From NCBI RefSeq assembly GCF_011045215.1, contig NZ_CP049201.1: 64,000 bases of DNA; one strand, 5' to 3'. Both the position numbers and the translations under genes were made by a program. The notes under the pieces were generated by a model. The model searched no databases and was not told where the DNA came from. It saw only the letters and a list, made by a program, of their open reading frames with translations. Position 1 is the first letter of the stretch, and each line of letters starts with the position of its first letter. This document shows positions 2,560 to 40,816 of this stretch, piece after piece. This DNA is from Escherichia coli. Lineage in GTDB: Bacteria; Pseudomonadota; Gammaproteobacteria; Enterobacterales; Enterobacteriaceae.

Positions 2560-5415
2560 TTACAGCGCGGCGATAACAGCCTGCTGTTCAATCAGCTTAG
2601 CTTTCGCTTCTGCATAGCCTTCCAGCTTCTCACGCTCTTTCGCGATGACCGCTTCCGGTGCGCGGGCGACAAAGCCTTCATTCGCCAGCTTGTTCTCGAT
2701 ACGGCTGATTTCGCCTTCGATCTTCGCCACTTCTTTCGCCAGACGCGCCAGCTCATCTTCTTTGTTGATGAGGCCAGCCATCGGGATCAGCAGCTCTGCG
2801 CCGTCGATGATCTTCGTAACGGAAACCGGACCTTTGTCATCGGCAGGCAGCACGGTGATGCTTTCCAGACGCGCCAGGGTTTGCAGGAAGCCACGGTTTT
2901 CATTTACGCGACGTTCTGCATCCGCGCTGCAACCACGCAGCAGCAGCTCCAGCGGTTTGCCCGGCGCGATGTTCATTTCTGCACGGATGTTACGTACCGC
3001 AACGATCGCCTGTTTCAGCCATTCGGTGTCGGCCAGTGCGGCTTCATCAACCTGAGATGCATCGTACTGCGGGAACGGCTGCAGCATGATGGTGTCGGCA
3101 GTGATACCGCAAAGTACTTTCACACGCTGCCAGATGGTTTCGGTGATGAACGGAATGATCGGATGCGCGAGGCGCAGCAGACCTTCCAGTACAGTCACCA
3201 GCGTATGGCGAGTACCGCGCAGTTCGGCTTCGGTTCCACCGTTCATTACCGGCTTGGTCAGCTCCAGATACCAGTCGCAGAACTGGTTCCAGGTGAACTC
3301 ATACAGAATGCCTGCAGCGATATCGAAGCGGAAGCTGTCCAGCGCTTCGCGGTACGCTTTGATGGTCTGGTTGAACTCTGCCAGAATCCAGCGGTCCGCC
3401 AGCGACAGCGTCATTTCACCACCGTTGAAGCCGCAATCCTGACCTTCCGTGTTCATCAGCACAAAGCGGCTGGCGTTCCACAGCTTGTTACAGAAGTTAC
3501 GGTAGCCTTCCAGGCGTTTCATATCCCAGTTGATGTCACGACCGGTAGACGCCAGTGCCGCCAGGGTGAAGCGCAGGGCATCGGTGCCGTGCGGCTCAAT
3601 ACCGTTCGGGAACTGCTTCTCGGTGCGCTTACGGATTTTGTCCGCCAGCTGCGGCTGCATCATATTGCCGGTACGTTTCTCCAGCAGTTCCGGCAGCGAA
3701 ATACCGTCAACCATATCCAGCGGGTCAATAACGTTACCCTTGGATTTGGACATCTTCTGACCTTCGTCATCACGAATCAGACCAGTCATGTAAACGGTGT
3801 GGAACGGCACCTGCGGTTTGCCATTTTCATCTTTGATGAAGTGCATGGTCATCATGATCATGCGGGCAATCCAGAAGAAGATGATGTCGAAACCAGATAC
3901 CATCACGCTGGTTGGGTGGAACTGGCGCAGTGCGTCGGTGTTTTCCGGCCAGCCTAGGGTAGAGAAGGTCCACAGCGCAGAAGAGAACCAGGTGTCGAGA
4001 ACGTCTTCGTCCTGACGCAGGGCAACGTCGGCACCGAGGTTATTTTCCTTGCGCACTTCTTCTTCGTTGCGGCCAACATAAACGTTACCTGCTTCGTCGT
4101 ACCATGCAGGGATACGGTGACCCCACCACAGCTGACGAGAGATACACCAGTCCTGAATATCGCGCATCCAGGAGAAGTACATGTTTTCGTACTGCTTCGG
4201 TACGAACTGAATGTCGCCGTTCTCAACCGCTTCAACCGCCGGTTTCGCCAGTACATCGGCACGCACGTACCACTGGTCGGTCAGCATTGGTTCGATAACT
4301 ACGCCGCCACGGTCGCCGTAAGGAACGGTCAGGTCGTGCGGTTTAATTTCTTCCAGCAGGCCGAGTGCGTCAACCGCAGCAACGACTGCTTTACGTGCAG
4401 CAAAACGCTCGAGTTTCTGGAACTCTGCCGGGATTTCGCTGGAATAAACGTCAGATTCGTTACCTTTGGTATCGAACACCTGGGCGCTTTCACGGATATC
4501 GCCGTCAAAGGTCAGGATGTTGATCATCGGCAGCGCGTGACGTTTACCCACTTCATAGTCGTTAAAGTCGTGCGCCGGAGTGATTTTCACGCAGCCGGTG
4601 CCTTTTTCCATGTCGGCGTGTTCGTCGCCAACGATCGGAATACGACGGTTAACCAGCGGTAGAATGACATATTTGCCAATCAGGTCTTTGTAACGCGGAT
4701 CTTCCGGGTTAACGGCCACGCCGGTATCGCCCAACAGGGTTTCCGGACGGGTAGTCGCAACCACCAGATAATCTTTACCGTCTGCGGTTTTCGCGCCGTC
4801 AGCCAGCGGATAGCGGATGTGCCACATCGAACCTTTCGATTCGCGGTTTTCCACTTCCAGGTCAGAGATAGCGGTGCGCAGTTTCGGATCCCAGTTTACC
4901 AGGCGTTTGCCACGGTAAATCAGGTCTTCTTTATACAGACGAACGAAAACTTCTTTCACCGCATTGGACAGGCCTTCGTCCATCGTGAAGCGTTCACGCT
5001 CCCAGTCGACGGAGTTGCCGAGACGGCGCATCTGACGGGTAATCGTGCCGCCGGATTCCGCTTTCCATTCCCAAATTTTGTCGATGAAAGCTTCGCGGCC
5101 GTAGTCGTGACGGGTTTTACCTTCTTCTGCGGCAATCTTGCGCTCAACGACCATCTGGGTAGCGATCCCGGCGTGGTCAGTACCGACCTGCCACAGGGTG
5201 TTTTTGCCCTGCATGCGCTGATAGCGGATCATGGTATCCATGATGGTTTGCTGGAAGGCGTGACCCATATGCAAACTGCCGGTGACGTTCGGCGGCGGGA
5301 TCATGATGCAGAAACTTTCCTGGCTTTCATCGCCATTAGGCTTAAAGTAGCCCTGCTTTTCCCAGTGCTCGTAAAGCGGCTGTTCGATATCTTGTGGGTT
5401 GTATGTCTTTTCCAT
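2560..5415 (-). CDS. valS: Valine--tRNA ligase
   Basis: 951-aa ORF with class I aminoacyl-tRNA synthetase HMGH and KMSKS motifs and a C-terminal coiled coil; matches E. coli ValS length. Confidence 0.97.
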
Positions 5416-13182: not shown

Positions 13183-13267
13183 GCCGAAGTGGCGAAATCG
13201 GTAGACGCAGTTGATTCAAAATCAACCGTAGAAATACGTGCCGGTTCGAGTCCGGCCTTCGGCACCA
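13183..13267 (+). tRNA. leuX: tRNA-Leu (anticodon CAA)
   Basis: 85-nt sequence GCCGAAGTGGCGAAATCGGTAGACGC...TTCGAGTCCGGCCTTCGGCACCA with CAA anticodon loop, long variable arm and encoded CCA end. Confidence 0.93.
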
Positions 13268-14794: not shown

Positions 14795-15934
14795 ATGTCC
14801 ACAATTAACCCCGCAATTTTTTCTTTTTTCTCTGGTTCAGGATTTCTTGATCTTGGATTTGAAAAAAATGGTTATGAAGTGGTTTTCGTGAATGAATACC
14901 ATGCTCCGTTTATGGATGCATATAAACATTCGAGGAAAAAATTAAATATAGCACCACCTCGTTTTGGGTATGCAGAGTGCAGTATTGAAGATGTAGAACA
15001 TGAAAAAATTAAGTCTTCTATGCTTCAACTTAAAAATGAGGGGCGATTGACTGGATTTATTGGTGGTCCACCATGCCCGGATTTCTCTGTAGCGGGTAAA
15101 AATAAAGGTCGAGATGGTGAAAACGGTCGGCTTTCACAAAGCTATATTGATATCATTCTTGAAATGAAACCAGATTTCTTTCTTTTTGAGAATGTTAAAG
15201 GTCTATACCGTACCAGTAAACATAGGGAATTTTTTGACCATTTAAAAACTCAATTAGAATCGGTTGGTTATTGTTTGCATGAAAAACTAATAAATTCTAT
15301 TGAATATGGTGCTCCTCAAGATAGGCAACGAATCATATTGATTGGTTTCCTTGATGAAAAATATGCAAGCCAATTCAATTGGGGGCAAAGAGTCTACCCT
15401 GAAAGAACTGCATTTGAATATAAATGGCCGACGACAAACCAATTTTCAGAAAACACTTCTGTTATAAAACCAAAGGGTATCCCAGAAGAGTTAACAGTAG
15501 AGCATTGGTTCAAGAAAAACCAGGTTGATAATCATCCAAATGCAAAGCATGTATTCGCGGCAAGAGCAGGGCTTGCGAGGTTTTTGACTGTCGAAGAAGG
15601 GGATGATAGTAAAAAATCCTATAAAAGGTTACATAGATGGAGATTTTCACCAACTGCTGCTTACGGTAATAATGAGGTACATTTACATCCTTATAAACCA
15701 AGAAGAATTACTGTTGCCGAAGCATTAGCAATTCAGTCTTTACCAAAAGAATTTGAATTACCTGCTTATATGACTCTGTCTAATATGTTTAAAACTGTCG
15801 GTAACGGTGTACCCTACTTAGCAGCGGCCGGTATTGCCAAATCTATTATAGAGCATTTAGGAATCGAATATGAGAGTAACTGCGGCGAACTTAGCACAGG
15901 CGATTGCCAATCTACCAAGAAACACGCAGTTTAA
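14795..15934 (+). CDS. DNA (cytosine-5)-methyltransferase
   Basis: Motif I FSGSGF, motif IV GGPPCPDFS, motif VI ENV and motif VIII QDRQR, in the canonical order. Confidence 0.85.
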   Translation: MSTINPAIFSFFSGSGFLDLGFEKNGYEVVFVNEYHAPFMDAYKHSRKKLNIAPPRFGYAECSIEDVEHEKIKSSMLQLKNEGRLTGFIGGPPCPDFSVAGKNKGRDGENGRLSQSYIDIILEMKPDFFLFENVKGLYRTSKHREFFDHLKTQLESVGYCLHEKLINSIEYGAPQDRQRIILIGFLDEKYASQFNWGQRVYPERTAFEYKWPTTNQFSENTSVIKPKGIPEELTVEHWFKKNQVDNHPNAKHVFAARAGLARFLTVEEGDDSKKSYKRLHRWRFSPTAAYGNNEVHLHPYKPRRITVAEALAIQSLPKEFELPAYMTLSNMFKTVGNGVPYLAAAGIAKSIIEHLGIEYESNCGELSTGDCQSTKKHAV

Positions 15935-16946
15935 TTATGTAAATGTGCGAAATTCGGGAAGAATCATTGTAACGAATGTTCAACTTCCCGAAGGCCCAAT
16001 AGAATTCAAAAGATTCGATCCAAAAAAGGGTGAGACACTGCATAGTTCTAAATCGGAAAGCATCTCCACACAAATGTTGTGGAGATTGGCTAATGCTTTA
16101 CAGGAAGATGTCCCTGTCAATTTGGATCGTATTTTTGGTGCAAGCTATAATACACGTGCTGTTCTCGAAAGCCTTTTGGCCCATACTCCTGAGTTTTATT
16201 GGTGTAAGCTTGATCGCCTTGAGGTAATGAACACTCAGAAAAATATTAAAAAAGGTCACAAGCACCTTATTTATAGACCAAATGACCCACATGAAAATGG
16301 TGTAGCAATAGAACATACTACTAATGTTATAATTTCTGAAATGAATTTAGATGTTGTCCATCAATCAGTTGATATAGAGACAATCTTACCTACTAAAGGA
16401 ATGACGATTGAGGAAAAAAGACGTCATGCACAAATTCAAATCTCATTAGTAAAAATAGGTCATTACTTAGGTTATCGGACATGGGTTGCAGCAAATGATC
16501 GTGGCCTCCAATATAATGGAAAATCTATAGCCCAAATGGATGGGGTCATAGATAATTTAAGAAATGAACAAGTGCTTCAATCATATGATAAAGCTATCAA
16601 AGAAGCTCGGCTTATAGATTGTATTTGGTTTCGAAATGGAAAATTAATGCCTGCAGTTATGGAGATTGAGCATAGCACTGGTATTAAAAGTGGTTTGGTA
16701 AGGATGAAACAATTTTATGATTATGCACCACAGTTAAAAAATATACGTTGGACCGTTGTGGCACCTGACGAATATAGAAATAAAGTTATAGAGTTTTCTA
16801 ATATGCCACAATTTAAAGAATTAGATACTCGATTCTTCCCCTATTCTGCTGTAGAGGAACTCTATTCATTATGTGCAAGAAGGAATCCTCAAGGAATTAC
16901 AGACGATTTCCTTGATGCATTCATGGAAAAGTGTGTGACACATTAA
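15870..16946 (+). CDS. Hypothetical protein, candidate restriction endonuclease partner of the methyltransferase
   Basis: 358-aa ORF overlapping the methyltransferase 3' end by 65 nt on the same strand; assignment by context only, no motif recognised. Confidence 0.45.
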   Translation: MRVTAANLAQAIANLPRNTQFNYVNVRNSGRIIVTNVQLPEGPIEFKRFDPKKGETLHSSKSESISTQMLWRLANALQEDVPVNLDRIFGASYNTRAVLESLLAHTPEFYWCKLDRLEVMNTQKNIKKGHKHLIYRPNDPHENGVAIEHTTNVIISEMNLDVVHQSVDIETILPTKGMTIEEKRRHAQIQISLVKIGHYLGYRTWVAANDRGLQYNGKSIAQMDGVIDNLRNEQVLQSYDKAIKEARLIDCIWFRNGKLMPAVMEIEHSTGIKSGLVRMKQFYDYAPQLKNIRWTVVAPDEYRNKVIEFSNMPQFKELDTRFFPYSAVEELYSLCARRNPQGITDDFLDAFMEKCVTH

Positions 16947-25259: not shown

Positions 25260-26405
25260 CTATAAACGAATTTTTATCGCCTTGTTTAAAGGTTTCATTG
25301 CGTAGATATTTGAGAAGGTCGTGTGTGTTTTGTGAAGAATGGTCTTACCAAAGCTTCTCAGAAGCTCGATGTAATGCTTTATGGAAGCAAGCCACTCTAC
25401 GAATCTGAGATGCTTTTGCCGTTGTACTGCATTTTTTTGAAGAATCTTTCCTACGATTTCGTTTCGTTTGTCTTCTCTAAGCCGTAATTCCAGTTCTGCA
25501 ATTTTTTCAACGATACTTTCCTTTCTCTCAGTGGTTTTCAACACTGTTGCAGGAGCAGGAGCAGCAGGTTGGTCTTTTGTCGATATGTCGCTTCGTAGAG
25601 CTTCTAAGTGGTCGGGGTTGTAGTTAAGCCGATTACTGAGATTTGCCCAGGAGTAGCTCTTGCCCAATTGTGAAGCTTTGAAAGCTATGCCTGTGTATTC
25701 GAAAGAGAAGCCGTTCATTTTACCGGTAGAGGCAATATTGGCCTTCCAAGATACTTCAGCTTCTTCCAGCCTCTTGATAAAAGTTAGAAGGTCCGGCTTA
25801 TCAGATAAACTTTTATCAAGTATCTGCTGCAGAGCTTCTCTTGGTGAAAGCACCCCGGTTCGTTCCGATAGCATTTTCTCATTACGGGACACTCTCTTCC
25901 GCTTCGGTTGTGCTTGCGAGGGGGGAGATGCAGTTTTGGTCACTGTCAGGCCATGAGCGATTTCGAGTTTACTGATGATCTGTGTGCTGATGAGGTTTTC
26001 GTTCCTACCCAAGTAGAGCTTCCCACCATTGAGATCTATGCGACTTGCGATAATGTGTATGTGCTGGCCATCGTCGTCATGAAGCACATAGCAACGAAGG
26101 TGAGTATCCCTGAACCCCATCCTCTTCATGTAGTCATCTGCGATAATGGACCACTGTTCATTCGTTAGTGTTTCACCGTCGGGTAAGCGAAGTGAGTTGT
26201 GCCAAACGGGTTTTGCGACATCTAGGCGAAGATGCTTGGTGCTATCGAATTCAGCGATCATTTCAACGGCTGAATCACTTAACATGTTCCCGCCAATGAC
26301 GACTGGATCGCTTTTGTGGTGTGCTCCCGATTGTAATACATAACGAACAACACCAGCGAAGCTCTTACCCCTCTTGATCTTCCGCATACCCTTCACGAGG
26401 GACAC
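25260..26405 (-). CDS. Relaxase (MobA/VirD2-type mobilisation nuclease)
   Basis: 381 aa; three-histidine motif HDDDGQHIHII typical of the relaxase/mobilisation nuclease domain; overlaps the upstream mobC-like gene. Confidence 0.75.
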   Translation of the reverse strand: MSLVKGMRKIKRGKSFAGVVRYVLQSGAHHKSDPVVIGGNMLSDSAVEMIAEFDSTKHLRLDVAKPVWHNSLRLPDGETLTNEQWSIIADDYMKRMGFRDTHLRCYVLHDDDGQHIHIIASRIDLNGGKLYLGRNENLISTQIISKLEIAHGLTVTKTASPPSQAQPKRKRVSRNEKMLSERTGVLSPREALQQILDKSLSDKPDLLTFIKRLEEAEVSWKANIASTGKMNGFSFEYTGIAFKASQLGKSYSWANLSNRLNYNPDHLEALRSDISTKDQPAAPAPATVLKTTERKESIVEKIAELELRLREDKRNEIVGKILQKNAVQRQKHLRFVEWLASIKHYIELLRSFGKTILHKTHTTFSNIYAMKPLNKAIKIRL

Positions 26406-26885: not shown

Positions 26886-28049
26886 TTAAGGATGATCTAT
26901 TGAAACAAACTTTTGACTAAACTCCAGCCATCTTGCATTATCAACATCCTTCACAAAAGCAATCAGACCTGCGACATGATTGTAAAAGCCAATTGGAGAG
27001 TCAAATTTTTCATGTCTTGCAACTTCTGAGAGACCAAATTTTTTTATTGAGTAAAGGTGGCGTTCAATACGTTTATAAGTTTGTTTAGATAATCGAGGGA
27101 CATTGCCATCAACAAGTAATCCTAAAACTATTTTTTTTGAACCAGGTCCAGCTACTCTTATTTTGCTTACGTTTTCTTTGAAATGGTGCTTACGAATGAT
27201 GCTGATAATGTTATTTTGTATTTTTCCAACCGAAACACCGTCGGGTAGAGTACCACCGCAGGATAATGTTATATCATCAGCATATCGAGTATAAGTGAAG
27301 CCATATTTATTAGCATATTCAGATAGAGAAATATCTAACTTTACAGTGGCTAAATTACTAAGCATTGGGCTACTCGGTGCCCCTTGAGGTAGCACTCCTA
27401 ACGGCCATGGTTCTGATATGTCCCAAAAAAGGCTCTTCTCTTTATTTTGTCCGTAAAGCTTATATTCCTTAGTTGAGTGCTTAGGAACAGAAATTAGAGA
27501 TTGTAAATGTTGTGGTAAACGTATAGTTGTGCATAGCCTTGATAGTTCAAATGCTATTAATGGCCGATATCCAGCATTTTTAAAAACCATATAAACATCA
27601 GATTCATTTATTGAATAAAAGAAATCGGAAATGTCGAATTGGAAGAGCCATTTAGCACCACAATGCTGTTCTGCACATTTTCTGATGCCACCATTAGGAT
27701 GGAAAGCAAAAGAAGTATTATGGGGAACTAACTTTTTTAATATTTCACTATTGATGAAATGCTGTACTTTAAATATCTCGCCAGTTACAGCATGAATATG
27801 GCGTCTTCCACCTGAACGTTTTTTTATAGCAAACATGCGATAATTTGCTGATTCACGGCGGCGTGATACAGTGGATCGTAGCAAGCGATAATCAACACCA
27901 GTAATTTTTGAAAGATGGCGTAATGTAAAAATTACAGGGAGATTATTTTTCTTCAGATTACTTGCATAATTTCTTAAGTTTAGAGCCTGTGTCTTCCCTA
28001 AGGATGACTCTGCATTTTGATAAAGTTGGTGTGCTGACCAGATTTCCAT
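26886..28049 (-). CDS. Reverse transcriptase, retron-type or defence-associated
   Basis: 387 aa; motifs FDISDFFYSI, LPQGAPSSP, catalytic YADD, and a thumb-like KIRVAGPGSKKIVLGLLV; no maturase, endonuclease or other extra domain. Confidence 0.85.
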   Translation of the reverse strand: MEIWSAHQLYQNAESSLGKTQALNLRNYASNLKKNNLPVIFTLRHLSKITGVDYRLLRSTVSRRRESANYRMFAIKKRSGGRRHIHAVTGEIFKVQHFINSEILKKLVPHNTSFAFHPNGGIRKCAEQHCGAKWLFQFDISDFFYSINESDVYMVFKNAGYRPLIAFELSRLCTTIRLPQHLQSLISVPKHSTKEYKLYGQNKEKSLFWDISEPWPLGVLPQGAPSSPMLSNLATVKLDISLSEYANKYGFTYTRYADDITLSCGGTLPDGVSVGKIQNNIISIIRKHHFKENVSKIRVAGPGSKKIVLGLLVDGNVPRLSKQTYKRIERHLYSIKKFGLSEVARHEKFDSPIGFYNHVAGLIAFVKDVDNARWLEFSQKFVSIDHP

Positions 28050-28237
28050 TCACCTATCCTTTGAGCCCAGGGGGCCATCAGTGTCATACATTTTCCGAGT
28101 CCTCGATGGCCGTTAATGTATGACATTGAAGGGCGGCGTAGCCGCCTTTGCGTCAGATCTTTCCAGAGATGTTTCTCCAACATCCCCATCCGTTGTAACA
28201 AAAGCCACAACAGATTCTGTCAAACAAGCGGTGAACT
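28050..28237 (-). ncRNA. Candidate structured non-coding RNA upstream of the reverse transcriptase (possible retron msr-msd)
   Basis: 188-bp intergenic region with an 11-bp perfect stem (28082-28092 with 28115-28125), an interleaved 7-bp stem (28073-28079 with 28105-28111) and a GGCGGC-gta-GCCGCC hairpin (28132-28146). Confidence 0.35.
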
Positions 28238-29458
28238 TCACTCATCATTGTTTAACGGCTGAACGGAGTGCTGATCAGCACACCAAGACTCTGGAATGTA
28301 AAGACCAAAATCCCATACACTATCGTTTTTAACATGCCTAGAATTTACAAGTATGTCAAGTCCGAATTTAGATAATCGTTTTTGAGTTGTCAATAGTCCT
28401 AATGTCTCTGCATATATGAGTAGTTTTTCTACATACGAACAATCAACATTCAAACGTAAGGCAATGCTTTTGTTATCTCTGACACCTCTTTTTATAAGTT
28501 TTAGTAAATTTATAATTTCGGGAGATAAAGATGAATGGGGGGAAGTGTTATGCTTTGTTCCATTTTCTAACAAGGCAAGCAGCCATCCTGGAATTGCTCT
28601 ATCAGGCATTAGTCCTTGCCATTTTTTATTAGAAAACCATAGTATTCCAGGAAGGTTATTAGGGACGCTATGATAAAAAATTATATTAGATAAAACATTA
28701 CCATAGCCAAGACGAGCCCATGGAGGAATTTTGGTTTGATTTTTACAAAGATTGATTATTTCATTATACTGCTCACCCCACCGAGTTTCTAACCAATTTT
28801 CATTATATACGATGTTACTTATGAAATTGATTTTTTCAGATTTTCTATATTTTCTTACTCCATGGTCTGAGCCGCGAATAGTATTGATTATTCTATTTTC
28901 AGAACCTAGTGTTCTGGCGAAAGAAATTAAAGTTAATCTTACTAGTCCTAAACTCCACCAACTTAAAAAGGTAGGGTTATCGAGCATGGCATTAATAAAT
29001 CCGGATACTCTATCACCACTACCAATCGAATCATCAATAAGTAAAAAATCGTTGACTTTAGATTTTTTCAGATCATTGAGTGATGGATGATCTAAAAACA
29101 TAGTTTTATTAGACCGCACAAGGTTTGAAATAATTGAATATACTAAGTCTTCGCTACCTTGCGAATGACCTGGTCTATTAACAACATCACCATTAAGGTC
29201 CCATAATACTTGTTTGTCTGGATCTAATTTGCGAACTGAATAAAGGGCATAATTTTTATTTTTTGGTAAATCAGAAATGCTCTTTTGAAGCCATATGGTA
29301 AACTCATCTCTACTTACAAAAGTTAACTTGCTCAAGATGTTTTTTGCAATCGCTTTTTGGCTGCTATTAAATTGCATAAGCCATTGAGCTATTTCCTGAG
29401 AGGATTCAATTTTTTCTACTGAAAGTATTTTAAATTTAGGTTTGTCTCTTGTTTTCAT
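28238..29458 (-). CDS. Phosphoribosyltransferase-like protein with a C-terminal helix-turn-helix region (candidate effector)
   Basis: 406 aa; PRPP-binding-type motif FLLIDDSIGSGDRVSG in the N-terminal half; HTH-like KSIALRLNVDCSYVEKLLIYAETLGLL near the C-terminus. Confidence 0.65.
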   Translation of the reverse strand: MKTRDKPKFKILSVEKIESSQEIAQWLMQFNSSQKAIAKNILSKLTFVSRDEFTIWLQKSISDLPKNKNYALYSVRKLDPDKQVLWDLNGDVVNRPGHSQGSEDLVYSIISNLVRSNKTMFLDHPSLNDLKKSKVNDFLLIDDSIGSGDRVSGFINAMLDNPTFLSWWSLGLVRLTLISFARTLGSENRIINTIRGSDHGVRKYRKSEKINFISNIVYNENWLETRWGEQYNEIINLCKNQTKIPPWARLGYGNVLSNIIFYHSVPNNLPGILWFSNKKWQGLMPDRAIPGWLLALLENGTKHNTSPHSSLSPEIINLLKLIKRGVRDNKSIALRLNVDCSYVEKLLIYAETLGLLTTQKRLSKFGLDILVNSRHVKNDSVWDFGLYIPESWCADQHSVQPLNNDE

Positions 29459-30643: not shown

Positions 30644-31519
30644 TTATAAATGATCTCCAATGTGAGCAATAGCGATTTGTGCCGGTCTATCAGGAATTCT
30701 ATTAAAGAAGCCAAAGTATATTCTATTGTAGTAATAAGTTCCTTTTCGATTAGTATTGTCCATGTATTCAAGTTTATAATGGAATTCACAATTCACGTCT
30801 TTATAGATACAATCACCCACTTTAAAATCACGTTTTAATTCCCCTATGGCTCGTTTATTTTTGCCTCCACCTTCTGGTGTTACAAGATAAGGTAACGATG
30901 AATTCATAATTCTAATGTTATGTTGTGAGTCATTAGGTATAATTGTATAGTTATTAACAAAATAAAGAAATTCAGTGATGCTTTTCAAAAAATTTTCATA
31001 TCCACCTTCAATTTTCCTAATAAAATTAAAGGTTTGTGGTGGGTTATCCAAAAAAATGACATTCTTGAAAATGTTTTTAATATTGTCAGCATATTCATCA
31101 CAATCCGATGGGAATTCATCAAGGATTTTCTTAGAAAGATCAATTATTTCACTTTCACTAGAAACTGTATTATCCTTTTTTAAAGGTATGTCTGGAGATT
31201 GATAGGCACAGAGTTTTCTTTCGGCAAGTATCGATGGGGATGTATTGATGATATTTAGAAGTTCATTGCAGCCTATTTCATCCAATAAACTAATTTGGCC
31301 TATTTTATAATACTCATTAACAAGGCCACCGTAATCAGGGTTTGTTGAAAATAATTTAGTGACAAATTTTCCATCAAATTCATTGGAGCGAAGAAACTTT
31401 ATAAAATCTGAATCCACTCTCTCTACAAGTGCTTTAAGATCTTTAATCTGGTTAAAAATCTTAATTTGTTCTTCTTCAAGAGAAAAACTATCTATGAACA
31501 AGCAAACACCTGCTTTCAT
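30644..31519 (-). CDS. Hypothetical protein (third gene of the DUF262-ATPase operon)
   Basis: 291-aa ORF starting 9 nt after the ATPase stop; no confident motif. Confidence 0.55.
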   Translation of the reverse strand: MKAGVCLFIDSFSLEEEQIKIFNQIKDLKALVERVDSDFIKFLRSNEFDGKFVTKLFSTNPDYGGLVNEYYKIGQISLLDEIGCNELLNIINTSPSILAERKLCAYQSPDIPLKKDNTVSSESEIIDLSKKILDEFPSDCDEYADNIKNIFKNVIFLDNPPQTFNFIRKIEGGYENFLKSITEFLYFVNNYTIIPNDSQHNIRIMNSSLPYLVTPEGGGKNKRAIGELKRDFKVGDCIYKDVNCEFHYKLEYMDNTNRKGTYYYNRIYFGFFNRIPDRPAQIAIAHIGDHL

Positions 31520-31528
31520 GAAATCCCC

Positions 31529-32680
31529 TTAATTTTCAATATCAGGAGTATTAAATGATCCTGTCATAATGGTATACATATCAATTGATTGCTGGTCAAA
31601 GAATCCTTTCGGCCAACTAGAAAGTTTTCCATCTTTGCCAATAGATATCTTTTCTGCAGTAGATTCATTATTCTCATGTGAAATATAAAATAACGAAATT
31701 AGCTCAGGTGAAAAGTCAGGAGATGTTCTTGCTACGACACGGATTCCGTTGAGAAGGTGATCGCTATGAGTTTCTATGAATACCTGTACTCCCGCTTGAG
31801 CAGTGTAAGCTATTAATCTACCCATATAGCTTTGTCCTCTAGGGTGCAAATGGGCTTCCGGGTTTTCTAAAACTACTAATTCGCCCGGTTTTGCTAAAAG
31901 TAATGCTGAAACAATACTCAAAGCATAGCTATAACCAAAACCAATGTTTTTGGGTTTAGTTTGTTTTCCTGACTCAGCCTGTATTGTGTTATAAGCAATG
32001 TTTGCACTAACTTCCAATTTTGGCTGTATTTTATAATTTGGGGATATTTCATCCATCCATGCCTGTATATTATTCGCAACCCTTACATTATTATAATTAT
32101 GATGTATTCTTGGGTCGTCTTTATTTGGATTACCATCTTTCAGTATTAGTCTATCTTGCCTATTCATTATATTGTCTAATACTTCGATGACATATTCACC
32201 TTTTTTCCCCAACCAATCGCTATGAAAATTGTGTTGTGATAAAGAAATATTGTCTCTTGGACCAATACGTTCGGCTTCAATATATTGAAAATTACTTGCA
32301 TGTATAAAGTTTTTAATTGTTTTAATGCTATCCATACCTGAAATACATGGAAGTTCATTACGAAGATTTGCTGAGTCCTCTTGTGTAACCCCCCAACTGA
32401 CTTCACATTCTTTAACTGAAAGAGTGATTTTCAGTTGATCATCATCTGAAATAAAGTCATTAATAATATCGTCAATACGACCAATGTTTATCAGTTCACC
32501 ATTTAACTTTATATCATTTTTACTACTAAAATCAGACTGTAACACCATACCTATGGCTTGCATTACTGTACTCTTACCGACAGAGTTATTACCACAAAAT
32601 ACATTTAGACCTGACAAATCAAAAGATTGCTCTTTGTATGATTTAAAATTTTTGAGTTTTATCGATTTAATAGGGAGCAT
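31529..32680 (-). CDS. ABC-type (AAA_21-like) ATPase
   Basis: Walker A GNNSVGKST near the N-terminus; LENPEAHLHP Walker B/D-loop region and ETHSDHLL H-loop near the C-terminus; ATG sits 3 nt after the upstream gene's stop, with a GAGGG ribosome-binding site. Confidence 0.75.
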   Translation of the reverse strand: MLPIKSIKLKNFKSYKEQSFDLSGLNVFCGNNSVGKSTVMQAIGMVLQSDFSSKNDIKLNGELINIGRIDDIINDFISDDDQLKITLSVKECEVSWGVTQEDSANLRNELPCISGMDSIKTIKNFIHASNFQYIEAERIGPRDNISLSQHNFHSDWLGKKGEYVIEVLDNIMNRQDRLILKDGNPNKDDPRIHHNYNNVRVANNIQAWMDEISPNYKIQPKLEVSANIAYNTIQAESGKQTKPKNIGFGYSYALSIVSALLLAKPGELVVLENPEAHLHPRGQSYMGRLIAYTAQAGVQVFIETHSDHLLNGIRVVARTSPDFSPELISLFYISHENNESTAEKISIGKDGKLSSWPKGFFDQQSIDMYTIMTGSFNTPDIEN

Positions 32681-32682
32681 TA

Positions 32683-34599
32683 TCAATTACCCTCATTAGC
32701 ATTAACAATCTTAATGCCTGTGCTTTGTTCAAGAATTTTCGCAAAAGAATTGAATCTATATAATATAGTTATTTTCTTTCCTGTTGAGGTAGAGATAGAG
32801 TCCTTAAACCCTCGCTCTGCTTCAATGTAAGTCTGTGAATCCCATGTGGCATATTCTTTTGAATTGCTATCAATAGCAGAATAAAGGGTATCAACCAATT
32901 TATCAGAATTTTTCAGCAATAACTCTTCTTGTTCCTCAGTAACATAATAGAAATAGTAAATTATCACTTCATAAAGTTGCTTACTTATAGGTGATGTATT
33001 AGAGCCAATCTCTTTTATGAAAGCTAAATCACCGAAAACATCATAGGCGAGGTTTAAAGCCCTCAAATATTTTCTTTCTATTTGAAGATACTCGTTGCAT
33101 TCATTCGAAATGTACGCACTTCCTAAATCTATTTCTTTTTCGTTTAATAAGTTTAATTTATATAGATTTAAGTTTTCCATGGCTTTTGATAAAAACTTAT
33201 CATAGGAATTAAAATTATAATTTTTAAAGCCAATATTTATAAATGCAAGAGCAGCAAGGCAAAGCTCCATATCCTTTTGTCTATCAGGCTTAACCTTACC
33301 ATGCGTTGCTTGTTTGAATTCGTTTTTGGATGCCAGATACCGTAAAAACTTAACACTTGAACCTTGATTCAGGGCCGAACGAATTTCTTGATCACTTAAC
33401 TTAACACCATATGTATTGATACGGTGGAATAATTCAACTATGAGATCAGTGCTATCTTTATTCATTTCTATAAAGTAAGCCGTGATTTCATATTCTCTTA
33501 TGGCTCTTTGTTCAGTGCGAGTAAGCTCACCAAACTCTTTACCATTTAAATCCTCAAGGATATCAAGTTTAGAAAGTTTAAATTCTCCACTCATAAAATC
33601 ATAAATTGTTGTGATCCGTTGTAAACCATCAACAACGACCCACTTATCTTCTGCGATTCGATTACCAAAATAAAATACAGGAAGTGGGAGTTTTAAGAGA
33701 ATAGACTCGATTAATTTAGACTTCTTCTCATTATTCCAAATACGATCTTTTCTTTGGAAGTCAGGTTGTAGTTCAATATCACCAAAATGAACCCGATCAA
33801 AAATGAGAGATAAAACCGGAGTCTTGGAGGTAATTCTTGCAACACCAAGTTTAGCTTGTAGAGTTTTTAATTCCAAGTTCAACTGTGATGATGTTGTATC
33901 ATTTTCACCCTCATCTACTCCATAAGTATTGGGTGACTCTATAAGTTCTTCTACAGTAGTATTATTACTAATTTTTAATGTTGGCACCTCTATATTATAA
34001 TCAAGAGTCACAACTGAGTTAGCCATATCTGCGGAAAGCTCTTTAAATCTATTAAGAGTAACCTCAACCATTTTTGAAGCAATTTCAGATGGGAATTTCT
34101 TCAAAACTATTTGATAAGCATCATCAAGGCTTTGAACTAATTCAACCTGCTGTTCATAAATTTTCCCAAGATTCAAATTGAGAAAATTATCAATTTTTTT
34201 TCTTAAAACCCTAAATTCAGAGCCTTGAACTTCTGATAATGTCGCTGCTTCATGGACATTATGACTACGCAATAACAGGTGTTTTTTGTTTTCATACTTG
34301 AAATGTTGAATATAGGGTAAGTTAGCAAATATTGTTTCTGGTTGGTTCCTGCTCGAAGAACTACCGTAAAGAACCTGCTCTACATTACAAAAACCTCTAA
34401 TATTTAAATTGCTGTAAATCGATTCAAGCTCTGATAATGAACGTGTTTTAGATTCAGAATTAGAAGAGACTTTATATTTACCGTTTTCACGATCAATGCT
34501 TATAATACATAGTGGAGGCGTAGAAGGATTAATTGGCTGTAGCTGTTTGCCAAAAAGAAGATTTTCGATGTCGTTTAGCACTTGTTCAAAGTTAAGCAT
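32683..34599 (-). CDS. DUF262 (ParB-like nuclease fold) domain protein
   Basis: 638 aa; central QPDFQRKDRIWNNEK...VVDGLQRITTI matches the DUF262 IPxFQR and DGQQR signatures. Confidence 0.7.
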   Translation of the reverse strand: MLNFEQVLNDIENLLFGKQLQPINPSTPPLCIISIDRENGKYKVSSNSESKTRSLSELESIYSNLNIRGFCNVEQVLYGSSSSRNQPETIFANLPYIQHFKYENKKHLLLRSHNVHEAATLSEVQGSEFRVLRKKIDNFLNLNLGKIYEQQVELVQSLDDAYQIVLKKFPSEIASKMVEVTLNRFKELSADMANSVVTLDYNIEVPTLKISNNTTVEELIESPNTYGVDEGENDTTSSQLNLELKTLQAKLGVARITSKTPVLSLIFDRVHFGDIELQPDFQRKDRIWNNEKKSKLIESILLKLPLPVFYFGNRIAEDKWVVVDGLQRITTIYDFMSGEFKLSKLDILEDLNGKEFGELTRTEQRAIREYEITAYFIEMNKDSTDLIVELFHRINTYGVKLSDQEIRSALNQGSSVKFLRYLASKNEFKQATHGKVKPDRQKDMELCLAALAFINIGFKNYNFNSYDKFLSKAMENLNLYKLNLLNEKEIDLGSAYISNECNEYLQIERKYLRALNLAYDVFGDLAFIKEIGSNTSPISKQLYEVIIYYFYYVTEEQEELLLKNSDKLVDTLYSAIDSNSKEYATWDSQTYIEAERGFKDSISTSTGKKITILYRFNSFAKILEQSTGIKIVNANEGN

Positions 34600-35499: not shown

Positions 35500-36051
35500 A
35501 TGTATGGAAAAATGGGAAAAGTTTATGATACCACTAGAATTAGTAATCTTGCTAACGACCCGAAACAGTTTTGTTCTTTTTTTTGTGAGTACATAAAAAG
35601 AGATGATATTAGTATAGATATCGCCTTGGATGTGCTGAGAATATCTTCCATCTATTATAATAGATTTTCAGTTCAGACTGAAGTTGAGTATAACAATACA
35701 TTCAAAAAATGTATTAATGAGCTAGTAAACTCATTTCCTGATAACATTGAACTAATCTCTGAGTTCGAGAGTCAATGTAAAATTATGCATGATATAAATA
35801 ATTCTTTCTTTGCGGCTACAAAATGTGCTGGTATTTGGCGTAAAAATACAAAAAAATCACATGCATTAATACTTAATCTCATCATGTTTTGTGAGATGTT
35901 TTTATCATCATTATCATCCTTGGTTGTGGTCAATGATCCTAAAAAAATGAAGAGGATTTTTCCATTATTTATCGTTTCTAAAATATTAATATTCATGCTG
36001 AACCTGATATCGAATATTTTCGAGTTATCGATAGGGCATTTGATGAGGTAG
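35500..36051 (+). CDS. Hypothetical protein
   Basis: 183-aa AT-rich ORF with a hydrophobic C-terminus. Confidence 0.45.
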   Translation: MYGKMGKVYDTTRISNLANDPKQFCSFFCEYIKRDDISIDIALDVLRISSIYYNRFSVQTEVEYNNTFKKCINELVNSFPDNIELISEFESQCKIMHDINNSFFAATKCAGIWRKNTKKSHALILNLIMFCEMFLSSLSSLVVVNDPKKMKRIFPLFIVSKILIFMLNLISNIFELSIGHLMR

Positions 36052-36098: not shown

Positions 36099-37547
36099 TT
36101 GAAACTAACTTCTTGTGTGAATAAACAAACCTTGCTTTCAATGGGAGGGTACCTTAATGAGTGGAATGTTTTTGACTCATTAAGCAGAGTAAGAGACTTT
36201 TTCAGACTAAGTAGTGCAGTATTTACAAAATTGGATAATAACATTTACTCTCTTGAGGTTGATAGTTTTTGTTTATACCGAGATTATGAGATTGCAAGAA
36301 ATAGACTAATGATGAGAGCGTCACATCTATATAGCGAAGTTCATGAATTTAGTAACAAACATTTTCATCTAAATAGTTGGGTAAAGGATCATATGCCATC
36401 TTACTTAAATTCTGATGGCGTTTTTAGCTCATTTCATCTAAGCGAGTTGGAAAATATGTCTCCTGATGACCTTCATGAAGAATATGGGAATATATCATTA
36501 TTTAATTGGGTGCACGCTTATCAATGTTTAGTCGAGTTATCTAAAGAAGAAATGAGAAAAAGATTTTCATCGACAAAACCTATACCCCTACAGTTGGATC
36601 GCTGGCTGATCATAAAAAGCCGTGAGAGTTGGTTATCATTCTTTCAACGTAAGGGGATTGCAGCAGATGCAGCAAAAAAACTGATAGATTATTTTACCTT
36701 CAATTCAAAATCACATGATCTTAATGATTGCCCATTTATTCCCTGTATGGACGGTTTATGCTTAATGCCTGCATTAATAGCAAATAGCTCAGTGACTCGC
36801 TCTCTAATGTCATTATTTGGTTCCAAAAAAATTTCTCAAGCAAGTAAAGGGCGATTTCATGAGCAACAATTTATAAAACAAGTTCGTGATGCGGGGATTA
36901 AAGCTTCTCCAATTGATGCTCATGCTAATTATCAGTGCGATTGCGTGATTCTCCTGGATGATTGTTTGATTTTTACAGAACTAAAATCAAATGGTCAACC
37001 AATATATTATGGTAAGTACTATCAGCAAGTGTGTAACATCGTTGGAGATAGCTCATTAATACATGATCATAATAATAAATTTATGCGTTCTTATTTTCAA
37101 CAAATAAATCGAATTTCTGAACATTATCTTAATCATCTTGATGTGATCATTAAAGAATTCGAACTACCATCAACATGGCAACCCAAAGGTGTGTATAAGC
37201 TTATTGTTACTACAACTATGCTCGGTGGAAAATATCATGTGGATGATACATATGTAGCGGACAAATATGCATTATCTAGTTTTTTTCAACGAATACCTGG
37301 AGTGATATATCAAACAAATGAAAATGGAAAAATGGCGAAAAATATCATTGATGGGTTTGAGTGTTGCGAAGGGGAAATCACTATCGATAAGTTTATAGAT
37401 TATCTTTCCTCTTTGCCCAGTATTAATGCTGTACGTAAAAATATAAAAAAATTAACTTATAGTGTTCGATTTAATGAAAAATTAGTCCATCACCCTTATT
37501 ATGATTCTTGGGCTTTTGGTCCATATATTCGTAAGGGAAATGATTAG
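36099..37547 (+). CDS. Hypothetical protein, possible PD-(D/E)xK-like nuclease
   Basis: 482-aa AT-rich ORF; CDCVILLDDCLIFTELKS resembles a D...ExK nuclease core, weak evidence. Confidence 0.45.
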   Translation: MKLTSCVNKQTLLSMGGYLNEWNVFDSLSRVRDFFRLSSAVFTKLDNNIYSLEVDSFCLYRDYEIARNRLMMRASHLYSEVHEFSNKHFHLNSWVKDHMPSYLNSDGVFSSFHLSELENMSPDDLHEEYGNISLFNWVHAYQCLVELSKEEMRKRFSSTKPIPLQLDRWLIIKSRESWLSFFQRKGIAADAAKKLIDYFTFNSKSHDLNDCPFIPCMDGLCLMPALIANSSVTRSLMSLFGSKKISQASKGRFHEQQFIKQVRDAGIKASPIDAHANYQCDCVILLDDCLIFTELKSNGQPIYYGKYYQQVCNIVGDSSLIHDHNNKFMRSYFQQINRISEHYLNHLDVIIKEFELPSTWQPKGVYKLIVTTTMLGGKYHVDDTYVADKYALSSFFQRIPGVIYQTNENGKMAKNIIDGFECCEGEITIDKFIDYLSSLPSINAVRKNIKKLTYSVRFNEKLVHHPYYDSWAFGPYIRKGND

Positions 37548-38168: not shown

Positions 38169-39098
38169 TCACCCCCTAAAAACCTCATTCCGATGCCACT
38201 CCACAAACCCCTCATAAGGGTAATTTTTACGCACCTGCGGCAACGCAATAGTTTTCCCGTCAAAATCCCAGAATAATCTCTCAACGATCCCTCCGCCGTT
38301 TACCGCATCTGATACCAGTACCCGCATATTTTCGTCCAGGCCAATCGATCCTTTATCAAAGGCTTTATGGTGAATTGCGCAAAGCGCCAGGCCATTAGGA
38401 ATTTCACAAGGACCGCCGTGCTGTTTCCATTTTATATGCGCCGCTTCCAGCGCGACGGTGGTGTCGTCGTGGCGCATATTAAAGCCACATATCGCGCACT
38501 GGTAGTTATAAGCGCGTAATACATTTTTGCGAAATAACGGGTCGCGCTGTTTACGGATTTGCTGGAGATCAAAACCCAGCTCGTCAGCAATTTCTTCCTG
38601 AATACTCTCGGTGAAGTGCGCTTCGAGTATCTGTTGCGCCAGAGTATTGATGAGTTTTTTATTGCCTGTTACCAGGGCGTAGTGCTGTTCATCGAAACCG
38701 CCTGCAACGTGGTATTCGTTCAGTTCCTTCACTGGCGGTTGTCGGCTGCTACCTGCTGTTGAGCAAAGCTCGGCATTGTGTAATTGCCAGAATCCGTCGC
38801 CTTGTAATCGCCAGAACGGCATATCAGGTCGGTACTGTGAACGCTGTGGCCCAAAACGTTCCAGTAAATTGTGCAGAGGTTCGTAGATTTCCGATCCATA
38901 ATCGAAAAGGCGCGGATGCCCATTCAGGTATCCCGCTAATACGTATAGCAGTAACAATGGTTTATGCGGCGCGCGCTGTTCACCCTTGTGCCAGATTTTT
39001 ATATTGGCAATTGCCTGCTGTAGCGATTTACTGGAAGCCATTGATATCCCTGGCAGTGAAATAATTGCGATCATGCTCGCAAATTTTCTGCTGTTCAA
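38169..39098 (-). CDS. HNH endonuclease-domain protein
   Basis: 309 aa; C-terminal YQCAICGF...AAHIKW...ALCAIHH HNH motif; N-terminal domain of about 200 aa unassigned. Confidence 0.7.
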   Translation of the reverse strand: MNSRKFASMIAIISLPGISMASSKSLQQAIANIKIWHKGEQRAPHKPLLLLYVLAGYLNGHPRLFDYGSEIYEPLHNLLERFGPQRSQYRPDMPFWRLQGDGFWQLHNAELCSTAGSSRQPPVKELNEYHVAGGFDEQHYALVTGNKKLINTLAQQILEAHFTESIQEEIADELGFDLQQIRKQRDPLFRKNVLRAYNYQCAICGFNMRHDDTTVALEAAHIKWKQHGGPCEIPNGLALCAIHHKAFDKGSIGLDENMRVLVSDAVNGGGIVERLFWDFDGKTIALPQVRKNYPYEGFVEWHRNEVFRG

Positions 39099-39177
39099 GC
39101 CTGCAAGTGAAGATATATTACCTTGATCTCATTTGTTTTTTTGCTGCTTGTTCTGAGAACGTATAAGGACATTCTCC

Positions 39178-39828
39178 ATGAATAAACTCCCCGATCATCT
39201 TCCTCGGCGGTATATCATCAAAGCTATTCATTTATGGGATGCGGGAGAAACTCATCAGTTCCAGCCTGCACGGTTGTATGAGATTGAATATCATGGCCGA
39301 CGTTACCCCTCGAAGGCGATTGCTGGCATCGCAGCGACATTGATGACGGGGACGCAATTTACCCCTGCGGATTTCACCGGCGGAATAAAATCTAAATGCG
39401 TCAAGCTACTTATAGATCAGGGATTTCATATTCATCAGGATAAAGCCGCTGCGGCTCCCATAGCCGATGTTCTGTTCCCGGATGAGTTGCCGTCGCAGGG
39501 GACCTACGTTGAAGGTGCGGCGATAAAGGTGACGGTAAACCGCTATGAACGAGATAAAAAAGCTCGCGAGAAAGCAGTCGAACATCACGGATGCCAGTGC
39601 AACGTATGCGGCGTTGATCTGGTGAAGATCTATGGCGATATCGCTGAGGGTTTTATCCATATGCATCACCTGGTGCCGCTTTCAGCCATTAAAGAGGATT
39701 ACCAGCTGGATCCAGTTAATGATTTACTTCCTGTGTGCCCTAATTGCCATGCGATGTTGCACCGACGCAAACCACCGTTTACGCCGGAGGAGTTAAAAGC
39801 GCTGATGGATGCGAATAAATCAAATTAA
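39178..39828 (+). CDS. HNH endonuclease-domain protein
   Basis: 216 aa; CQCNVCG...HMHHLVPLS...CPNCHAMLH HNH motif; N-terminal domain of about 130 aa unassigned. Confidence 0.7.
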   Translation: MNKLPDHLPRRYIIKAIHLWDAGETHQFQPARLYEIEYHGRRYPSKAIAGIAATLMTGTQFTPADFTGGIKSKCVKLLIDQGFHIHQDKAAAAPIADVLFPDELPSQGTYVEGAAIKVTVNRYERDKKAREKAVEHHGCQCNVCGVDLVKIYGDIAEGFIHMHHLVPLSAIKEDYQLDPVNDLLPVCPNCHAMLHRRKPPFTPEELKALMDANKSN

Positions 39829-39835
39829 TGAACGC

Positions 39836-40816
39836 TCACCTTTCGCGCCAAAACTGCAAAATTGCTTCTACAAACTTGTCAGAAATAATCCCCCGACGGG
39901 CTGCCGCGCTGAAATGACTGCTTCGCAGTGCCGTCGTCCAGTTCTCCGGTGACCGGTACGCTGAACCGTAATATCCCGTGCTTAAATCGTCCGGATCTTC
40001 ATCAGGCGCGTTCGTCAGTCCTCTTTCACCTTGTTGCTGGAAGTCGACGAAAATAATATTGGCTAAAACATTATTTTGATAATTGCCATAAATAGCTTCA
40101 TACGCATGAGGGAAATTTTCTTTCCAGTACCAGGTGGTATCGCCGCAAAACCACGGCGCATCAGTAATATTATTAAGCTGAGAATGGTATTGTTTTAGAT
40201 CCCTACGAAAGGCTTCAACCATATGATTAAAGTGTTGAGGGTGTGACGCGTAGTCACTGGTCATTAAGTCAAATTCGCCTTGCATCCAGCATACGCCGAG
40301 GAATTTGTTCTGCGGATTTTTTGCCAGTGCGGCTCGCGTTCTGCTGACTAAATCCTGGTACAGCGGAGTATCCGTTCCCCAACGACAAGCATCATGGCTG
40401 GCTCCGTGCCGTTCTGAATATGTCCCCTCGCTGCCAGCGGTAAAAGCCGATCCGCCACGGCAACACGGAACGATGAGAACCCCTGCGTTATCAGGAATAA
40501 AGGGCAGTAATTTCCGTGCAATATGCAGTGCCTGGCCAACGGTGCCGTACTGTGTTTGATGATTCGTTGCCAGAGGATGGTGATAACCCTGCATATCCTG
40601 AACATCGTGTGGGCAGTGAGTCAGTGGAATAATGTCGTTAAAGTGACATGACGGGCCTCCGGGATGCGTATGCGCAAATCTCGCTAATTGTTTAATTCTG
40701 GGATGAGGCGCATCTTCCCTGTCCGGTAATGGCAGTCCTTCGCCATACGCCATAGCATTAGACTGACCAGCAACGGTAAGAACAAAGTAATAATCAGGCG
40801 ATATTATTGCGTTCAT
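39836..40816 (-). CDS. nanS: 9-O-acetyl-N-acetylneuraminate esterase
   Basis: 326 aa from the internal Met; SGNH-hydrolase GQSN motif; matches K-12 NanS/YjhS. Confidence 0.9.
   Translation of the reverse strand: MNAIISPDYYFVLTVAGQSNAMAYGEGLPLPDREDAPHPRIKQLARFAHTHPGGPSCHFNDIIPLTHCPHDVQDMQGYHHPLATNHQTQYGTVGQALHIARKLLPFIPDNAGVLIVPCCRGGSAFTAGSEGTYSERHGASHDACRWGTDTPLYQDLVSRTRAALAKNPQNKFLGVCWMQGEFDLMTSDYASHPQHFNHMVEAFRRDLKQYHSQLNNITDAPWFCGDTTWYWKENFPHAYEAIYGNYQNNVLANIIFVDFQQQGERGLTNAPDEDPDDLSTGYYGSAYRSPENWTTALRSSHFSAAARRGIISDKFVEAILQFWRER

Follow-up and report, generated by a model that had tools for sequence, protein, structure and literature searches.

The window analysed here is a stretch of 64,000 nucleotides (64 kb) of Escherichia coli DNA (contig NZ_CP049201.1), and the subject of this study is a pair of intact HNH nuclease genes within it that are divergently arranged and transcribed outward, in the open reading frames (ORFs) 38169..39098 (−), here gene 1, and 39178..39828 (+), here gene 2. 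The pair is located at that end of the E. coli leuX island which is distal to the tRNA gene, and it adjoins nanS. Two divergent ORFs with complete HNH motifs had been described in a first-pass annotation of this DNA, and this was borne out by matches to Pfam PF13391 in gene 1 and PF01844 in gene 2. The N-terminal domains, an SBD in gene 1 and a domain resembling the head of ScoMcrA in gene 2, are mutually unrelated, as the annotation had also stated; the possibility that head and SBD are distant relatives was ruled out by an hhalign probability of 0.4%, and the only BLASTP match between the two proteins covers 27 residues where the HNH domain begins. The Pfam-A scan gave the HNH domains only, and the N-terminal domains were identified through a sequence search of the PDB, precomputed Pfam labels and structure. 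The length of 130–200 residues that had been assigned to both N-terminal domains applies to the SBD of gene 1 (~140 residues) but not to gene 2, in which a head of ~88 residues is followed by a low-confidence linker of ~30 residues. The proposed searches for domains of the SRA, EVE, PUA and SBD types likewise led to an SBD in gene 1 and to none of these in gene 2, which matches only the ScoMcrA head.

The longest ORF of gene 1 starts at TTG 39098 and encodes 309 residues; RefSeq orthologues are annotated from an ATG and have 290 residues. The NCBIfam alignment of gene 1 begins at residue 25 of the 309-residue ORF, which supports a start at ATG 39041, and from these alignments the TTG is probably not used. 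Once gene 1 starts at the ATG, the shared spacer, previously given as 79 bp, becomes 136 bp. The protein matches NCBIfam NF045808 (phosphorothioated DNA-binding restriction endonuclease) with 438.2 bits against a cutoff of 180, over positions 2–284 of the 284 in the profile. In a phmmer search of the PDB, its N-terminal domain matches the SBD of ScoMcrA (5zmo, 5zmm and 5zmn) with E-values of 7e-8 to 3.5e-7. Residues H26-K27 and M74-P75 align with the ScoMcrA sulfur-pocket residues H116-R117 and Y164-P165, and the alignment to 5zmo and 5zmm also keeps the core residues PLLL, FW and W85. In the study that defined the ScoMcrA pocket residues, Lys is a common variant at position 117, and the R117K and Y164M forms are functional, with Y164M binding phosphorothioate DNA at least as well (PMC6224610). 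The HNH_2 domain is intact (PF13391, E 1.3e-9, model positions 1–66 of 66) and matches the HNH domain of TagI (6ghs) with an E-value of 9e-6. The search for relatives returned 4393 homologues of gene 1, and the precomputed label PF26340 is found on such homologues. The ratio of nonsynonymous to synonymous substitution rates (dN/dS) within E. coli is 0.07–0.20, and gene 1 is under purifying selection.

We infer that gene 1 is EcoWI in another strain, an enzyme that is already known, and that it cleaves DNA in a phosphorothioate-dependent manner, as expected from 98% identity. That value comes from the syntenic protein of E. coli W, WP_000168572.1, which is identical at 285 of 290 positions and is the 290-residue product of a gene located between the McrBC pair and nanS. 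EcoWI, a type IIM/IV enzyme, is a Mg2+-dependent homodimer that cuts at N7/N6 from GpsAAC/GpsTTC, and its expression on its own is enough to abolish transformation with dnd+ plasmids (PMC7461809). The computed mass is 33.3 kDa as compared with the 33.4 kDa published for EcoWI (PMC7461809). Gene 1 shares with EcoWI its two-domain architecture and its length, the pocket and HNH residues are kept, and the five substitutions from the window to strain W (N58S, G156R, H207Q, G278V and N284K) include none in the pocket or the catalytic motif. The two loci differ in their second gene, because the head-HNH gene of strain W is destroyed whereas that in the window is intact. No Dnd or Ssp families were found in PADLOC scans of 20 island ORFs, a subset of those in the window.

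In gene 2, residues 24–87 match residues 29–93 of full-length ScoMcrA with an E-value of 9e-5, and the precomputed labels on its 2638 homologues are PF26345 (ScoMcrA_N) and PF01844. The HNH domain matches PF01844 with an E-value of 4e-4 and the HNH domain of EcoKMcrA (6ghc) with 1.2e-3 over residues 123–198; residues C141, C144, C187 and C190, together with H163-H164, N189, H191 and H195, are invariant in 33 homologues. An AlphaFold2 (AF2) model with a pLDDT of 82 is folded in two domains, between which residues 89–119 form a linker of low confidence; the pLDDT falls below 50 at residues 89–103 and 117–119, and both the length and the sequence of the linker vary in the family alignment. A Foldseek search of the PDB with the whole model gave no match at E <= 0.001, and the head was therefore compared structurally through a domain-only model; it has no match to the SRA, EVE, PUA, winged-helix, NEco or SBD readers. 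No NCBIfam family was matched by gene 2, and PADLOC gave weak mREase_IV matches only. The proposal that these proteins are type IV enzymes, with an N-terminal domain fused to HNH, applies fully to gene 1 through NF045808, the SBD pocket and the likeness to EcoWI, and to gene 2 through its architecture only, from which gene 2 is predicted to be a type IV enzyme.

Gene 2 is 100% identical to its counterpart in E. coli strain MARGA_3. Its dN/dS is 0.11 relative to the divergent allele of strain EC2341 (31 differences, 22 synonymous and 9 nonsynonymous) and 0.29 relative to a near-identical allele (6 differences); these values refer to alleles within the species, since synonymous sites are saturated in intergeneric comparisons, which makes those unusable. 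Gene 2 is under purifying selection and is a functional gene in the window. Its orthologues in other genera are full length and 65–72% identical. There is no methyltransferase adjacent to gene 2, the neighbors of which are gene 1 and nanS, and in the six neighborhoods of homologues that were examined no methyltransferase is conserved; the genes beside the homologues are defense genes (GmrSD_N, HsdR and PLD-helicase). An origin of gene 2 as a homing endonuclease or from a phage was considered and rejected, as no full-length homologue is present in 50,697 phage records. A second head-HNH allele, 58% identical, is found in E. coli on hundreds of contigs. This divergent allele (loci L103–L105, positions 4001–4654) is near glgS, in an element with TraI_2 relaxase and ArdC genes, and there is no SBD-HNH gene near it. 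The features of the two genes and of the region between them are collected in Table 1.

Table 1. Features of the divergent HNH gene pair, with positions in the 64-kb window (aa, amino acids)
Feature	Position	Strand	Remarks
Gene 1, EcoWI-type SBD-HNH restriction endonuclease (by homology)	38169..39041	-	290 aa; range includes the stop codon
SBD of gene 1, residues ~4-142	38616..39032	-	phmmer match to ScoMcrA SBD chains
HNH_2 nuclease core of gene 1, residues 182-236	38334..38498	-	Pfam PF13391
Divergent intergenic region common to both genes, 136 bp	39042..39177	.	ATG 39041 (-) to ATG 39178 (+)
Conserved palindromic block AAATAATTGCGATCATGCTCGCAAA	39060..39084	.	Cross-species conservation of the spacer
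Gene 2, ScoMcrA-head + HNH, predicted type IV enzyme	39178..39828	+	216 aa; range includes the stop codon
Head (ScoMcrA_N-like) domain of gene 2, residues 1-88	39178..39441	+	Fold alpha-beta-beta-alpha-alpha-beta
Flexible linker of gene 2, residues ~89-119	39442..39534	+	Low pLDDT; variable in family alignment
McrA-type HNH domain of gene 2	39535..39825	+	Pfam core residues 141-197 = 39598-39768
29-aa ORF, start overlapping the gene 2 stop (TAATG)	39828..39917	+	RefSeq calls in orthologous loci

The spacer is predicted to hold both promoters, and the start region of gene 2 drives an expressed relic in K-12, YthB, described below; a consensus scan of its 136 bp identified no strong sigma-70 consensus. 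Its most conserved part is AAATAATTGCGATCATGCTCGCAAA, a 25-nt block with the half-sites TGCGA-N6-TCGCA, 24–41 nt upstream of the start codon of gene 1. The block is nearly invariant, with two variable positions, in E. coli, two Citrobacter and two Klebsiella, and outside it the spacer has diverged. Most of the EcoWI-like genes that were fetched, the lone Salmonella genes included, have the block 24–41 nt before their start codon; it was not matched in Enterobacter hormaechei (L097–L099) or at the lone head-HNH loci. Because it is present at lone SBD-HNH loci and not at lone head-HNH loci, it belongs to gene 1. A function as an RNA hairpin was rejected, as the predicted stability is no better than that of shuffled sequences (z −0.42), and loop and flanks are conserved like the stem, without covariation. 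The likelier interpretation is a putative protein-binding site. By eye only, the half-sites resemble those of CRP.

The locus is nearly universal in E. coli yet mostly eroded. In K-12 and ST131, a 206-bp piece of gene 1 and YthB remain; in strain 042, the 5' half of each gene and the right part of the spacer are missing; strain W and an O26 strain have an intact gene 1 and have lost gene 2, of which strain W retains a 105-bp remnant; and in strain EC2341 it is gene 2 that is intact and gene 1 that is lost. Among 5426 E. coli genomes, at least 80% of gene 1 is present in 1706 and at least 80% of gene 2 in 1238, and both are present at this level in 325 as compared with ~389 expected under independence, a comparison of counts that ignores shared ancestry among strains. 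This separate retention, together with the activity of cloned EcoWI on its own, argues against obligate cooperation, and neither gene needs the other. YthB of K-12 is a 33-residue protein, MNKLPAHLSRQNCKIASTNLSEIIPRRAAVLK, in which the initial ~8 codons of gene 2 are joined to a 29-codon ORF that overlaps the gene 2 stop, and it maps to positions 39178–39200 and 39840–39917 of the window (from the K-12-like strain 4FA, L002 4330–4428). From this mapping YthB is evidently the relic of a deletion that removed almost the whole of gene 2. It was detected as a tagged protein in stationary phase (bioRxiv 10.1101/511675) and by mass spectrometry (PMC12529367), and because the relic is expressed, the translation start of gene 2 is active in K-12. 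The 29-residue ORF itself is antisense to the 3' end of nanS, which is convergent with it, and is given in RefSeq as a hypothetical protein in many strains; it may be spurious where gene 2 is intact.

The divergent pair is kept in three different chromosomal contexts; Citrobacter has it beside prpR, and K. quasipneumoniae has it with a GH43 gene on one side and genes of the type VI secretion system on the other. In K. aerogenes (L106 2260–4636), the pair is beside a type I hsdR gene and is accompanied by a third gene, so that Mrr_N-HNH and SBD-HNH genes are in tandem and the head-HNH gene is divergent from them; the three HNH enzymes carry three different N-terminal domains. The N-terminal domain of the additional neighbor is an Mrr_N winged helix (Pfam E 2.5e-12), and its nuclease domain is 57–60% identical to that of gene 2. 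Enterobacter MGH24 and Raoultella have the tandem SBD-HNH and Mrr_N-HNH genes without head-HNH. SBD-HNH occurs alone in Salmonella and E. hormaechei, and head-HNH alone in K. pneumoniae, Atlantibacter, Pseudescherichia, Pantoea, Shewanella and an E. coli integrative element. The pairing is not accidental. In the simplest reading, these genes make up a small mobile cluster, in which independent single-chain enzymes with different sensors are gained and lost piecemeal. It is plausible that the two enzymes in the window have complementary specificities, as the first-pass annotation had suggested, and this fits the cluster of three readers in K. aerogenes.

A profile of the head domain retrieved 2883 cluster representatives among 1.84 billion proteins. 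A Pfam scan of the best 150 of these 2883 identified HNH in 41, HNH_2 in 18, EVE in 15, NOV_C in 9, AAA_5 (McrB-type) in 6, nSTAND3 in 5, DUF3427 in 4, SAD_SRA in 3, MrcB_N in 2 and AspBHI_N in 1, and searches of head-domain proteins with NCBIfam, PADLOC and AFDB agree with this census. Two representatives are McrB homologues in which the head is upstream of the GTPase domain, where the specificity domains of McrB proteins are located. Judged by these partner domains, the head occurs almost exclusively in type IV-style architectures. It is the sole non-nuclease domain in gene 2 and its close family, including all 33 aligned members, and because it is the only domain besides the nuclease, it is the default targeting module of gene 2. 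Among the representatives P0241–P0390, the head is also associated with nSTAND3 NTPases, with the NOV_C and DUF3883 nuclease-like domains and, in one protein, with an annotated ZorC EH domain of the Zorya type; such partners suggest uses of the head beyond classical restriction enzymes.

We consider it probable that the locus encodes two separate single-chain restriction endonucleases directed against DNA with marks that are foreign to the host. Neither would have a partner methyltransferase, and each would attack foreign DNA bearing a mark that is absent from the host. The SBD of gene 1 would dock onto the Rp phosphorothioate in GpsAAC/GpsTTC, and its HNH_2 domain, in a homodimer with Mg2+, would cut both strands a few bases downstream (N7/N6), so that incoming DNA from dnd+ donors would be destroyed; these steps are taken over from EcoWI because they were shown experimentally for that enzyme, which has 98% identity to gene 1. 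In the product of gene 2, the head of ~88 residues would be tethered through the flexible linker of ~30 residues to a zinc-stabilized McrA-type HNH domain, with the head acting as a DNA-targeting or modification-sensing module and the HNH domain cutting nearby. E. coli normally has Dam and Dcm methylation. Gene 2, if active, must tolerate the Dam and Dcm marks and that of the island methylase described below, and its target would be something other than unmodified E. coli DNA or DNA with any of these modifications. The two enzymes would act independently and together keep out modified DNA of more kinds, and they would travel as a small Enterobacteriaceae cassette to which K. aerogenes adds the Mrr_N winged-helix-HNH enzyme. 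A more specific version, which we offer only tentatively and would not count as probable, is that the head is a previously unrecognized modification reader, unlike SBD, SRA, EVE, DUF3427, NEco or winged-helix domains, that gene 2 is its minimal natural form, and that the three enzymes are a battery for three marks.

Several observations weigh against these interpretations and for others. Identification of the strain W protein with EcoWI depends on the name of the enzyme, synteny and mass, as neither an accession nor a sequence for EcoWI was found in the papers examined. Literature searches found no measured activity or specificity for any head-HNH protein and no paper naming the Pfam family PF26345, and the head of ScoMcrA was described as small and flexibly attached, with a function that is not known (PMC6224610). 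About three quarters of E. coli genomes have lost gene 2 or carry it truncated, and the benefit of the gene is therefore not a constant one. The head is often located beside established readers (EVE, SRA and DUF3427) in one chain, as an accessory module would be, and it could be such a module, for general DNA grip, oligomerization or regulation, and not a reader. From this comes the main rival, in itself unlikely, in which gene 2 encodes a nuclease that does not read modifications, with a head that is a general DNA-binding, oligomerization or regulatory domain, and acts as a sequence-specific or structure-specific enzyme or as an effector triggered by infection; the association of the head with STAND NTPases and the ZorC EH-annotated protein would be in keeping with it. 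However, head plus HNH is the commonest architecture, with the head as the sole non-catalytic domain in 33 of the 33 aligned members, and in the McrB homologues the head takes the place of specificity domains. Furthermore, there is no conserved immunity or antitoxin gene next to gene 2, the neighbors of which differ in every context, and an unregulated, non-specific HNH nuclease would be toxic, yet the start region of gene 2 is expressed in stationary-phase K-12.

A cooperative arrangement, in which the locus is one phosphorothioate system and head-HNH assists SBD-HNH through recruitment, cutting of the second strand or formation of a hetero-oligomer, as a ScoMcrA in two chains, is suggested by the presence of head and SBD in a single ScoMcrA polypeptide, a link of the Rosetta-stone type, and by the adjacency of the genes in different chromosomal contexts in E. 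coli, Citrobacter, K. quasipneumoniae and K. aerogenes. We judge it improbable, since cloned EcoWI restricts phosphorothioate plasmids completely on its own, as a homodimer (PMC7461809), and strain W, the putative source of EcoWI, has just the 105-bp remnant of gene 2. In addition, the intactness of one gene is not positively associated with that of the other in the 5426 genomes (325 observed, ~389 expected), each type of gene occurs alone elsewhere (SBD-HNH in Salmonella and E. hormaechei; head-HNH in Klebsiella, Pantoea, Shewanella and the E. coli integrative element), and the conserved palindrome tracks gene 1 only. In ScoMcrA itself, the flexibly attached head makes no dimer contacts, and a headless SBD-SRA protein still bound phosphorothioate DNA in the crystal (PMC6224610). 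The erosion of the locus in most E. coli, with fragments in K-12, ST131, 042 and W and at least 80% of gene 2 in only 1238 of 5426 genomes, might be taken to indicate that gene 2 is a decaying, non-functional remnant that persists through its proximity to gene 1 and nanS. This seems very improbable for a full-length ORF in which all catalytic and zinc residues are present, with a dN/dS of 0.11 between E. coli alleles and full-length orthologues at 65–72% identity in other genera.

The interpretation of the locus as two independent enzymes has a parallel in the immigration control region of E. coli K-12, mcrBC-hsdRMS-mrr, a variable locus in which modification-dependent restriction enzymes of differing specificities are clustered. 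The multi-enzyme logic of that region is comparable to that of the clusters of two or three HNH enzymes described here, but its enzymes are unrelated to them and it is located at another chromosomal site, whereas the enzymes in the window are single small polypeptides. The domains of ScoMcrA from S. coelicolor (head-SBD-SRA-HNH, PDB 5ZMM; PMC6224610) are split over two genes in the window, but these genes each have an HNH domain of their own subfamily, HNH_2 in gene 1 and McrA-type HNH in gene 2. An SRA match was found in neither gene 1 nor gene 2, and neither is an orthologue of ScoMcrA. Gene 2 resembles EcoKMcrA (NEco-HNH, PDB 6GHC), which targets 5-methylcytosine and 5-hydroxymethylcytosine in CpG context (PMC6182155), in its type of HNH and in the combination of a small N-terminal domain with a C-terminal HNH, but its N-terminal domain has the head fold and no match to NEco. 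The published type IV enzymes composed of a winged helix and HNH sense N6-methyladenine (PMC11037411); Mrr_N-HNH genes, which have a comparable architecture, hold the companion position beside SBD-HNH, but differ from gene 2 in having a winged helix instead of the head and in being arranged in tandem and not divergently.

Gene 1 brings nothing new, and it is gene 2 that gives the pair its value. The head occurs widely (2883 cluster representatives), and a crystal structure has been available since 2018, although no function has been assigned to it. Gene 2 is a small E. coli enzyme in which the head is the only non-catalytic domain, and it should clone easily; the pair offers a simple, minimal system for asking what the ScoMcrA head does. 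If the head does read a mark, type IV restriction would have a new specificity module, the mark could be mapped with the head as a reagent, in the way that EcoWI came to be used for phosphorothioates, and the third sensor-like domain of ScoMcrA would be explained. The edge of the leuX island is, in E. coli, a long-standing and repeatedly eroded site for type IV restriction.

The wider setting only partly agrees with the tRNA-island hotspot that had been proposed, since the pair is at the leuX island but on its distal edge, 25 kb from the tRNA gene (leuX, tRNA-Leu CAA, 13183–13267). The ORFs that flank the pair are nan and fim genes and two ORFs without a family match: nanS-nanM-nanC-fim genes are on the right and low-GC island cargo on the left. 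The GC content changes at ~38000, directly left of gene 1, from 0.29–0.39 on the left to 0.46–0.50 from the pair rightwards, and this step marks the boundary of the variable island cargo, with the pair on the backbone-like side. A search of the window for an attR to delimit the island, in the form of a repeated leuX 3' end, gave no match. No complete E. coli genome has at least 80% of the whole 25-kb island, and the stretch that contains the pair is up to 98.9% identical to E. coli genomes over a length of 1801 bases.

Further cargo of the island includes a type II restriction-modification pair at 14795–16946, in which PADLOC matches the cytosine-5 methyltransferase to MTase_II (E 1e-163) and the endonuclease to REase_II (E 2e-124), a MobA/TraI-like relaxase at 25263–26405, a type III-A retron reverse transcriptase with a PRTase effector at 26889–29458 (−), and NsnA/NsnB/NsnC at 30647–34599 (−; PADLOC E 1e-94 to 1e-115). 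Directly left of the HNH pair are two low-GC ORFs, both on the plus strand, at 35500–36051 (183 residues) and 36099–37547 (482 residues). Searches with these two found no NCBIfam match and no meaningful PADLOC match, and they could be a candidate defense gene pair that has not been described before.

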